A stretch of 64,000 nucleotides of DNA from a virus (taxonomy: Duplodnaviria; Caudoviricetes). The notes beneath the pieces are model-generated. The model was not told the origin of the DNA, ran no database searches, and was given only the letters and a program-made list of their open reading frames with translations. Shown one piece after another: positions 22,306 to 50,637 of this stretch. The stretch covers positions 32,001-96,000 of the IMG/VR virus record IMGVR_UViG_3300021399_000099; one strand, 5' to 3'. The stretch's first letter is position 1. The number at the start of each line of letters is the position of its first letter. A program made the position numbers and the translations under genes.

Positions 22306-22497
22306 ATGCTAAGAGTAATTGTAAATGAAGGAGACAAAATCGACAGAGCCCTGAAGCAATTCAAACGCAAGGTGAATAACACGAAGTTGATACAACAGCT
22401 GCGTGCCCGGAAAGAGTTTGAAAAGCCCTCAGTGACTGCCAGAAAAGGAAAACTCAGGGCGGAGTACATCCAGAGACTTCGCAATGAGCAGGAATAG
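22306..22497 (+). CDS. rpsU: ribosomal protein bS21 (phage-encoded)
   Basis: 63 aa; IDRALKQFKRK...LRARKEFEKPSV motif; Tyr54 present. Confidence 0.93.
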   Translation: MLRVIVNEGDKIDRALKQFKRKVNNTKLIQQLRARKEFEKPSVTARKGKLRAEYIQRLRNEQE

Positions 22498-22979: not shown

Positions 22980-23396
22980 ATGAAACGATTCTTTAACTTA
23001 TCTACAGGTATAATGCTGGGTGTCATCGCGATAGCTGTTATAGTTGCGGTCCTTAGTTCCACCATTAATTGGCAGGCTGTAATCTGGATGGTTATCGCGG
23101 CGATGTGGGTCGCCATCGCACGCGTGAATGAGATGATGTCTGATGGTTGGAAAGAGCTGTACTATAGTACCAATGACGAATTGACGGAGCTCAGGAAACA
23201 GAACACTGACACTGACGCGAAGTATCAGACAGCAGTACAGGACCTGGATAACGTGACCCAGAAAGTCGAGGAGCTCACTCAGGCTCTGGAAGCGAAGAAG
23301 CCCCGCAGGAAAAAGAAGTTGGACCTGTCGGATGAAGACGTCACCAGGATAAAGATGGAAATGCGAACGGCAGGTCTGATTAAGGAAGAAGAATAG
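22980..23396 (+). CDS. two-TM plus coiled-coil protein
   Basis: Hydrophobic N-terminus and heptad C-terminus. Confidence 0.8.
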   Translation: MKRFFNLSTGIMLGVIAIAVIVAVLSSTINWQAVIWMVIAAMWVAIARVNEMMSDGWKELYYSTNDELTELRKQNTDTDAKYQTAVQDLDNVTQKVEELTQALEAKKPRRKKKLDLSDEDVTRIKMEMRTAGLIKEEE

Positions 23397-23414: not shown

Positions 23415-24027
23415 TGAAGCGTCGTCTAACGGCAAGACATGGGATTTTAGTTATTATAACTGAATGCACTGAGGGAAACCTTGGATGTAGAACCTCCCTA
23501 ATTCGGTGAAAGCTAAGTGAATGATGAAAGTAAGATTGTACGGCGGATTCCCAGAGATGGGGAACTATGAAGCAGTTCTTAATGTATGTACACTCATTTA
23601 TATGCCAATGCCGAGCCAATGTTATTCATCAATATATTATATGTCTTTGTAGGAGAGAACTGGAAAAGAATATTCCTTGCCCATTGTCGGCATAAGTTCC
23701 AGTATTGATGATAGACAGTGTGTAGAGACTATACAGGAGGAACCTAAGTTGAAATGCTTGATTACCCTACGCATGATTGACGTATAAATCCTATTATACA
23801 ACCAAATCATGAGTGAGATTAAAGAAACAACTAGTGAGTAGGATTAAAGCTAGGATGGTAATGAGCTGCTTGCAAGATTTCAATATGGTTAAGATACAGT
23901 CCAGACCACAAACAAATGAATCGACGAACGTCCTGAGGGATGTACAAGATAATCGTGGCGACATTTGGTAGTGAAAGCTATAGTGGCAAGGGTTCCCAGA
24001 ATAGAGGTTCGATTCCTCTCGCTTCAA
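23415..24027 (+). tRNA. tRNA-Gln(UUG), exons 23415-23448 and 23991-24027
   Basis: Joined exons give TGAAGCG/CGCTTCA acceptor, GTCT/AGAC D stem, TGGGA-TTTTGGT-TCCCA anticodon arm and AGAGG-TTCGATT-CCTCT T arm; no encoded CCA. Confidence 0.9.
23449..23990 (+). mobile_element. group I intron (542 nt, no homing endonuclease ORF seen) at tRNA position 35/36
   Basis: U before the 5' site and terminal G; P1 TTT|AGTTA-TTA-TAACTGAA with U.G pair; P AATTCGGTGAAAGC, Q AATGCCGAGC, R GTAGAGACTATAC, S AAGATACAGTCC; P3 CCTCC/GGAGG. Confidence 0.9.
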
Positions 24028-24209
24028 CAAAAAAAACATTCGGACCCTTGTTTTTTTAAAAACTTGTTTGTATATTTATATAGAGAGTAAAGATTTTCCA
24101 TTTTGTTAATAAGTTTGACCGGTTAGTTTGCCAGACACGAAGACAGCTGCCAGACCACCTGTAATAGGGACTCTTTTGAGTACCTTTTTTACGCAACACA
24201 CCTCCTTTC

Positions 24210-49221: not shown

Positions 49222-50637
49222 TTAGGCGAGACCGATTTCCTTCGCCTTTTTCTTGACAAATGCCTCGGCCTCGTCAAAGTTGTTTCCAATCACACCGTCC
49301 AGAATTGCTTCCTTCACGGCATCTTTCAGCACAGCGATAGTCTTGGACGGCTTAAGGTGGAATGTCTCCATGATATAGTCGCCAGTAATCGGGTTTTTAA
49401 AGTTCCGGATTGCGTCTTTCTCTTCAACCTCAGCAATATGTTTCTCAATTATGATGAGGTTGTTGTAGATTCTCGTTCGCTTCTCTTCATACTTGGTAGT
49501 CACATCGCACTTTGCCAGAATGAGCAGGTCGTCGATATCGTCTCCGGCATCGAAAAGGAGCCTGCGAATTGCACTATCGGTAACCCCCTCCTCAGCAAGT
49601 GTAGTAGGACGCATATGCATATCGACCAGCTTTCTCACATGTTCCGCCATGTCCATAGGAAGGTGAAGCCTGCGGAATATACCTTCAATCATCTTGGCAC
49701 CTGCAGGGGCGTGACTTTCAAAAGTCCAACCGCGTTTTTCATCGTATTTCTTGGTCACGGCCTTACCGATATCATGGAGAAGGGCGGCCCAACGAAGTGT
49801 CAAGCTGTCAGACATTCCGGCAACATTGTCCAGGACCCTCATAGTGTGGTCAAAAATGTCCTTGTGACCCTTATCTCCGGGCATACGTAGGTTATCTACT
49901 TCCGGCAAAATAAATGGCAATAAACCGGTTTCTTTGAGCAATATGAAACCCTGTGACGGTTTCTTTGAGACCAGTATTTTGTTCAGTTCCTCGGTGATAC
50001 GCTCCCCGGAAAGAGTCTTTATTTCTTCCTTGCACTCTTTTATTGCCTCAAATGTCGGTGTAGCAATGTGGAACTCCTTACCTGGACGAGACAGTTTGCA
50101 ACGGAAGCGGATACAGCGAAGCATACGTAAAGCATCTTCCGTAAATCTGTCTTTCGGCTCGCCAACGCATCTTATAATTCCATCCTGTAAATCGTTTAGA
50201 CCACCAAATAAATCAACCAATTCACCAAAATCTGCATCATTGACACTTATACACATTGCGTTGATGGTAAAATCTCTTCTCTTCAAATCATCTTCGAGCG
50301 TCCCGTCAAACACAAACGGTTTTCTGGACCCCCTCTTATAGACTTCTTTCCTGGCGCCAACGAACTCCACCTTCTGGTCTCCGTATTTCACCATAGCCGT
50401 GCCAAAGTTCTCATACACAGTGAGTTCGCCATTGGTCAATTTTGAAAACTCCTTGGCGGCCTTGATACCGTCACCAACACACAGGAAGTCAATGTCATCG
50501 TTGTCAATGCCGAGAACAAGGTCCCTGACAAATCCACCTACAACATATATCTTGGCTCCGGTAATCTTGGCGGCACTGGAAGCCAGCAGGAAAACCGGGC
50601 ACTTAATCAATTCGTCTTTATAGTTCATTCTTGCCAT
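49222..50637 (-). CDS. cca: class II tRNA nucleotidyltransferase (CCA-adding/polyA-pol family) with HD domain
   Basis: VGGFVRD, DIDF, FGT, DLKRRDFTINA, EDALRMLR, ERITEEL, LLHDIGK. Confidence 0.9.
   Translation of the reverse strand: MARMNYKDELIKCPVFLLASSAAKITGAKIYVVGGFVRDLVLGIDNDDIDFLCVGDGIKAAKEFSKLTNGELTVYENFGTAMVKYGDQKVEFVGARKEVYKRGSRKPFVFDGTLEDDLKRRDFTINAMCISVNDADFGELVDLFGGLNDLQDGIIRCVGEPKDRFTEDALRMLRCIRFRCKLSRPGKEFHIATPTFEAIKECKEEIKTLSGERITEELNKILVSKKPSQGFILLKETGLLPFILPEVDNLRMPGDKGHKDIFDHTMRVLDNVAGMSDSLTLRWAALLHDIGKAVTKKYDEKRGWTFESHAPAGAKMIEGIFRRLHLPMDMAEHVRKLVDMHMRPTTLAEEGVTDSAIRRLLFDAGDDIDDLLILAKCDVTTKYEEKRTRIYNNLIIIEKHIAEVEEKDAIRNFKNPITGDYIMETFHLKPSKTIAVLKDAVKEAILDGVIGNNFDEAEAFVKKKAKEIGLA

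Follow-up and report, generated by a model that had tools for sequence, protein, structure and literature searches.

The closest described relatives of the element studied here are the group I introns of subgroup IC3 in bacterial tRNA genes, among them those of Anabaena tRNA-Leu(UAA), Azoarcus tRNA-Ile(CAU), tRNA-fMet and tRNA-Arg(CCU), which are about 200-250 nt long. In the accessible part of one survey (Williams 2020, 10.1101/2020.01.27.920355), bacterial tRNA group I introns fall into 21 site classes, and the seed alignment of 26 sequences places introns at position 35/36 in tRNA-Lys, -Tyr, -Asn and -Asp, with tRNA-Gln absent. A preliminary description of the present locus had named Leu(UAA), fMet, Ile(CAU) and Arg(CCU) as the classic sites, which is overstated as a full list; it also called a Gln site in a phage tRNA unusual. 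A preprint on Patescibacteria (Nakagawa et al. 2025, bioRxiv 10.1101/2025.07.03.662931), as far as accessible, reports tRNA group I introns with a 'novel insertion site'; these lie in bacterial chromosomes and in other tRNAs, in contrast to the phage tRNA-Gln considered here.

In phages, reviews place group I introns mainly in protein-coding genes, with examples in T4-like phages, the Bastillevirinae (PMC11878797), crAss-like phages (PMC7886860) and Jug phages (PMC12880540). These are likewise self-splicing ribozymes, with endonucleases inside or nearby, and the accessible parts of the sources describe no tRNA host; a further source, also accessible in part, assigns over half of viral introns to IA2 (PMC11835236). 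Introns in phage tRNAs were stated to be unreported by Devoto 2019 (PMC6784885), which described 'enigmatic' tRNA introns of Lak megaphages with no group I assignment. The Lak inserts also occupy the anticodon loop in a gut jumbo phage, but the described example is tRNA-shaped, whereas the present intron has a full group I core and no tRNA inside. Exchange of intron segments is known from yeast mitochondrial omega introns, which are mosaic via gene conversion, with the intron uncoupled from its endonuclease (Wu and Hao 2014, PMC4059233). Our literature search, which covered mostly work outside subscription journals, found no report of group I introns in tRNA-Gln or in any phage tRNA, nor of domain exchange across tRNA sites.

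Here we describe a 542-nt group I intron in a phage tRNA-Gln(UUG) gene. The single insertion is modestly novel, as both the intron family and the position are known and only for this tRNA and for a phage host was no earlier report found; the part worth following is the phage lineage to which it belongs, with its matched guides and exchangeable domains.

The intron lies between anticodon positions 35 and 36 of tRNA-Gln(UUG)

The window, a stretch of 64,000 nt, belongs to a 217-kb phage record with an estimated completeness of 61%. The tRNA exons, the intron elements and the flanking genes described here are all on the plus strand. Exon 1 (23415..23448) comprises tRNA positions 1-35 and ends at U35, the U(-1) of the 5' splice site, and exon 2 (23991..24027) runs from G36 to the discriminator A73, with CCA not encoded. 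Excision of 23449-23990 (542 nt), which had been proposed as a group I intron, leaves a standard cloverleaf with a U1-A72 pair, a 5-bp anticodon stem, a 7-nt loop and the anticodon UUG. ARAGORN with intron search indeed called tRNA-Gln(ttg) i(35,542) at 23415-24028. The split gene was missed by default ARAGORN and by Rfam at the gathering score, as had been anticipated.

The splice junction was fixed by comparison with syntenic loci, which were fetched via homologues of the upstream 138-aa ORF. The locus in the syntenic contig L286 lacks exactly 542 bp, and the tRNA there matches the predicted spliced sequence base for base, with an Rfam tRNA score of 60.1 bits. Because this allele and the flanking bases fix the boundary, the predicted junction TTTT|GGTT has a single possible placement, which confirms the proposed insertion at position 35/36. 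Alternative junctions (Pro-UGG, an ochre-suppressor UUA and other registers) break either the U/terminal-G rule or the 7-nt loop. Intron-less alleles were also found in the close relatives L291-293 and in L024, the site label of which is doubtful. The tRNA-Gln region is identical in three further assemblies (L282-L284), and a strain variant (L285) differs from the window by five small changes in the intron, which spare the P1, P3, P4 and P7 pairs. The locus is therefore not an assembly artefact.

In two further contigs (L287/L288, 4496-4557), the syntenic tRNA-Gln carries a different insert, 62 nt long and at position 34/35. It has no group I core and ends in a helix followed by C, resembling the tRNA-shaped class of inserts. 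Thus, from the comparison of L286, the window and L287/L288, three states of the Gln locus are known: empty, occupied by a group I intron, and occupied by the 62-nt insert.

Upstream of the gene lie a phage bS21 ribosomal protein gene (22306..22497), kept in the syntenic loci, and the 138-aa ORF (22980..23396), which ends 18 nt before tRNA-Gln. A SAM-lyase-like gene (PF23780; 24593..25354) is found downstream in all syntenic loci. A promoter and terminator scan at the locus gave signals no more frequent than chance. The best structure matches of bS21 are 9i5v and 7jil, the latter from Flavobacterium. We infer a Bacteroidota host, and the names of the records suggest rumen samples as the source of this jumbo phage.

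The intron has an intact catalytic core and four expanded peripheral domains

The P1 hairpin with the internal guide occupies 23449..23464, where G23462 pairs with U35 and 23463-64 pair with U34/U33; P1 thus has a U23448.G23462 wobble, two pairs below it and a five-pair extension above. The P10 strand of the guide (23458-61) pairs with exon 2 over its first four bases. This guide is common to all long Gln-site introns. It also permits a P1 register shifted one base upstream, so that mis-splicing would be possible. P1 is followed by the P2 hairpin with a GAAA loop (23465..23489) and by the P3 5' strand, J3/4, the P4 5' strand and J4/5 (23493..23511), in which P3 pairs with 23736-23740 and P4 (23502-07) with 23610-15. 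P5 carries an extension of ~80 nt (23512..23605), and P6a one of ~86 nt (23620..23717), the latter with a close match only in the strain variant among the introns compared. The R element (23725..23740) holds the P7 5' strand and then the P3 3' strand. After P8, with an extension of ~120 nt (23743..23888), comes the S element, composed of J8/7 and the P7 3' strand (23889..23902). The 3' region (23906..23990) comprises P9.0 (23906-09 with 23983-86, 4 bp), P9.1 with an extension of ~50 nt, the P9.2 GAAA hairpin and the terminal G at 23990.

Alignment to RF00028 and comparison of 138 related introns showed that the P, Q, R and S elements, the P3/P7 pseudoknot and the P4-P6 domain are all present. 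The wobble in P1, the P/Q/R/S elements, the P3 and P7 pairings and the terminal G had been recognised in the preliminary description, and each could be mapped. The G-binding pair (23727/23901) is G-C in 138/138 introns aligned, P3 shows compensatory changes, and the core pairs are conserved or covarying. P9.0 and the end of P7 have one mismatch each, and the catalytic-core pairs are all intact.

A group I model search, which had been suggested as a check, gave a mixed outcome. The RF00028 score was 19.5 bits (E 0.032), below the gathering threshold of 50. This low score is not disqualifying because the long extensions break the model and because the RF00028 seed holds no bacterial sequences, according to the accessible part of Williams 2020 (10.1101/2020.01.27.920355). 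A covariance model built solely from 18 bacterial Leu, fMet and Arg tRNA introns (R1) matched the intron in two halves, with 44.3 and 32.9 bits (E 1.5e-11 and 1.5e-8), the second ending at G23990. The only matches of R1 in the genome were this intron and its sister in tRNA-Leu(UAA). By its match to R1, which reaches the terminal G, and by the shared S motif, the element can be placed with the classical tRNA introns of bacteria in the IC3 lineage. These comparisons confirm that 23449-23990 is a group I intron, for which self-splicing is predicted.

The intron resembles the bacterial IC3 tRNA introns in its core motifs, P2, P9.0/P9.2, 3' end and U(-1)/terminal-G rule, and its core is 60-70% identical to those of the bacterial tRNA introns compared. 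It differs from them in its phage host, in its tRNA and in its length. Furthermore, the IC3 subgroup lacks P5abc, and this intron instead has a long, non-conserved P5 extension; its four peripheral domains are all expanded and, unlike those of the bacterial introns, appear to be exchanged between sites.

The intron contains no notable sense-strand ORF and no nuclease similarity, in agreement with the earlier statement that an endonuclease ORF is not evident. It had also been proposed that the long extensions are remnants of such an ORF. Comparison by tblastn with 13 ORFs of related introns gave only short or core-overlapping matches, with no similarity outside the core. The extensions have helical folds (P6 and P8, median z about -1.4) and recur in other introns at 81-100% identity. 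The proposal is thus not supported, and the extensions are better read as helical domains that are exchanged between introns. A stronger form of the same idea, in which a decaying intron sits in an effectively dead tRNA gene and its extensions are endonuclease debris, could draw on the two mismatches, on the presence of a redundant intact Gln(UUG) gene and on the damage seen in some relatives. It is very unlikely given the intact catalytic-core pairs, exons identical to the intact allele, and the restriction of the changes in L285 to positions outside P1, P3, P4 and P7 pairs. Among the damaged members, the terminal G is replaced by A in L035 and L039, and L026 has lost anticodon bases.

The extensions were also considered as copies of the intron's own exons. 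The likeness is striking in three introns, yet over 31 introns it is not systematic (Wilcoxon test, p 0.74). Look-alikes of the anticodon arm or exon 2 occur in P6 of the L032 Gln intron, in P5 of the Leu intron of this genome and at 23545-23554 of the window, and their frequency over the whole set is no higher than chance.

Related introns occupy at least about nine tRNA sites

Relatives were collected by motif scans, and sites were assigned by anchored calling with hand checks, which leaves a few doubtful labels (L064, L024). The long-intron lineage has at least about 35 distinct members, with cores 82-96% identical to that of this intron. In a core tree of 159 columns, which has weak internal support, the lineage forms a supported branch (96/94) within which two short, long-branch rows fall. 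Its members occupy at least about nine tRNA sites: position 34/35 of Leu(UAA), Leu(UAG), Arg(UCU), Ser(UGA) and Lys(UUU), 33/34 of Leu(UAA), 36/37 of Lys(UUU) and of a CAU tRNA, and 35/36 of Gln(UUG). Besides the intron in the window, at least five further long introns lie at Gln 35/36 (L032, L299, L314, L323 and L330), and short introns were found at Gln 35/36 (L121) and Gln 34/35 (L109). In L299, L314, L323 and L330, the Gln intron adjoins a common ORF of about 480-570 aa.

In several complete phages, two or three introns of the lineage occur together. In the phage described here, the sister intron is 442 nt long and lies at position 33/34 of tRNA-Leu(UAA) (G000 C1 166883-167409, minus; L030 6884-7410), with a core 94% identical to that of the Gln intron. 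This site precedes the classical 34/35 site of cyanobacteria by one base and is also occupied in L003, L015 and the bacterial L222.

Among the matches listed, nearly all are on viral or phage-like contigs, and two are on MAG contigs (L177, L202). A search of 401 Bacteroidia genomes found no long-lineage intron, and short S-motif matches only, in 4 of them. An annotated phage collection gave only short core-motif matches, and searches of viral contigs with the exon-1 pattern and with bS21 gave no match. Gut Clostridia MAGs (L140-L258) contain at least 16 distinct group I introns at position 35/36 of tRNA-Asn(GUU), with a 7-pair guide match. The Patescibacteria introns reportedly occupy 35/36 of tRNA-Asn and tRNA-Asp and are said to be of a different subgroup.

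Some related introns encode ORFs, in the P1 loop of L044, L202 and L222, antisense in P6 of L061, L120 and L126, and also in L083, L088, L102 and L115. The ORFs are of HNH type in Leu introns and of a different nuclease-like family in Lys introns.

Guides match their own exons and peripheral domains are shared across sites

Over 19 site classes, the guides form 5.3 pairs with their own exons and 3.1 with the exons of other sites (p 8e-6), a partly circular comparison as pairing also helped to call the sites. P10 alone, subject to the same partly circular site calling, forms 2.8 pairs with its own exons and 1.6 with others (p 5e-4). Despite their common guide, the seven long Gln-site cores were rejected as one clade (AU p 0.0009, 159 columns).

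The peripheral domains are shared singly. Comparison of 35 long introns in all 595 pairs found a single peripheral domain in common, at >=80% identity, in 20 pairs and two domains in none (0/595); 15 of these 20 pairs are introns at different tRNA sites. The P5 extensions of the Gln intron and of L002, an Arg(UCU) 34/35 intron, have 91% identity over 80 nt, and P6, P8 and P9 of the two introns are unrelated. Likewise, L044 and L273, two introns 255 kb apart on one contig, have P8 domains that are 91% identical. The simplest reading of these alignments is that the P5, P6, P8 and P9 domains reassort independently through recombination at conserved blocks of the core. The locus in the window was assembled identically several times, so that misassembly is no explanation for it, but misassembly could affect some of the mosaic partners. 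Two introns have chimeric exon pairs, L024 with exon 1 of a Ser and exon 2 of a Lys tRNA and L038 with exon 1 of an Arg and exon 2 of a Leu tRNA, which reflect either recombinational deletion between tandem introns or misassembly.

Alternatively, the intron of another tRNA could have reached the Gln site by reverse splicing followed by reverse transcription, perhaps several times, with the peripheral differences due to drift. This route has been proposed for group I introns (PMC1299323, PMC3984707), and cores 94-96% identical at different tRNA sites and the polyphyly of the Gln-site introns speak for it. As the main explanation we consider it unlikely. The guide of this intron pairs poorly with most other sites, so that guide changes would have to precede each move, and the sharing of one domain at a time fits DNA recombination better than hops of whole introns; a search of the phage record, which represents 61% of the genome, found no reverse transcriptase. 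Reverse splicing may nevertheless account for the first arrival at a site.

The phage carries redundant tRNA-Gln genes and free-standing endonucleases

A cluster of ~47 intact tRNAs and a tmRNA lies ~110 kb from the split gene and includes an intact Gln(UUG), with an A1-C72 mismatch, and an intact Gln(CUG). This bears on the earlier suggestion that splicing gates the supply of tRNA-Gln or keeps the anticodon out of reach of host anticodon nucleases until it is needed. Phage tRNAs counter tRNA-cleaving defences (PMC11555353), and the lineage occupies Lys(UUU), the target of PrrC, and other U34 tRNAs. However, the two intact genes are present in the same genome, the close relatives L286, L291-293 and L024 have intron-less alleles, and the mature product is the same as the intron-less tRNA. 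Furthermore, the U(-1) rule alone explains the bias towards U-rich anticodons. We therefore regard both gating and hiding as very unlikely.

The cluster also contains free-standing HNH (C1 174487-175587, minus) and GIY-YIG (C1 172470-173405, minus) genes, and the HNH protein is 44% identical to an ORF within a related Leu intron. The presence of these genes in the cluster raises the alternative that the insertion shields the tRNA gene, destroying the target of tRNA-gene-cutting homing endonucleases of competing phages and being favoured in mixed infections. The 62-nt insert at 34/35 of the same Gln locus, which marks the anticodon as a repeated insertion hotspot, and the precedent of collaborative homing (PMC3984707) are in line with such a role. 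Since the Gln gene lies about 110-120 kb from the two endonuclease genes and their cut sites are only putative, and since shielding overlaps with a selfish element that would require no benefit to the phage, we give this alternative a low probability.

The genome carries further unusual tRNA genes. Lak-like tRNA-shaped anticodon inserts are present in tRNA-Phe, -Asn and -Arg (G000 C1 177345-177601, 179141-179319 and 182397-182575, all minus), and the Phe insert contains a nested tRNA-like element bearing its own insert. Five tRNA-Leu genes in a row (G000 C1 177788-178545, minus) have short variable arms, compared with the usual long arm of bacterial tRNA-Leu. A tRNA with a CUA anticodon (G000 C1 162435-162507, minus) is amber suppressor-like; long ORFs nonetheless end in TAG. 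A recoded genome was considered and rejected, as translation with codes 15 and 4 brings only a modest gain in ORF coverage and all three stop codons, TAA, TAG and TGA, terminate long ORFs.

Discussion

We conclude that the element is probably a self-splicing group I intron of IC3 type that behaves like a near-neutral mobile element within the tRNA gene of a phage. Its patchy presence, the redundancy of the tRNA and the shuffling of domains point to a near-neutral, selfish element spreading by DNA recombination and not to a switch of tRNA supply. By the two-step guanosine pathway established for group I introns, free guanosine would attack after U35, held in the U.G pair of P1, and exon 2 would be aligned by P10 and the terminal G. 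The joined exons would give a normal tRNA-Gln(UUG), the same as the intron-less tRNA, to which CCA could be added by a host enzyme or by the product of the phage PolyA_pol/HD gene, of the CCA-adding type, at 49222-50637 of the window. Less certain is how the intron spreads at the DNA level without its own nuclease; it may do so by recombination between phages or by trans (collaborative) homing, which is known (PMC3984707) and for which the free-standing HNH and GIY-YIG genes of the tRNA cluster are candidate sources. Recombination in near-identical core segments would then swap domains among tRNAs, with the short guide staying tied to its exon. The exchange differs from that of yeast omega in that omega alleles recombine at one site, whereas here introns of different tRNA genes would do so.

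A bolder reading of the same exchange is that jumbo rumen and gut phages maintain a recombining pool of ORF-less group I ribozymes as a cassette system, with a fixed core, a site-set guide and four exchangeable domains as cargo under selection, which, once freed by splicing, might serve for instance as decoys or regulators. We hold this to be quite unlikely; if true, the intron would be a delivery vehicle rather than a passenger.

Because default annotation misses such genes, phage tRNA sets are undercounted. The lineage also offers naturally occurring ribozymes as scaffolds, in which four positions accommodate large inserts. Whether group I introns without an ORF arrive at new sites by reverse splicing, trans homing or recombination is a long-standing question. 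The related introns at at least about nine sites, with their matched guides, empty alleles in near relatives and visible domain crossovers, allow it to be tested by comparing genomes already available and by simple assays in vitro.
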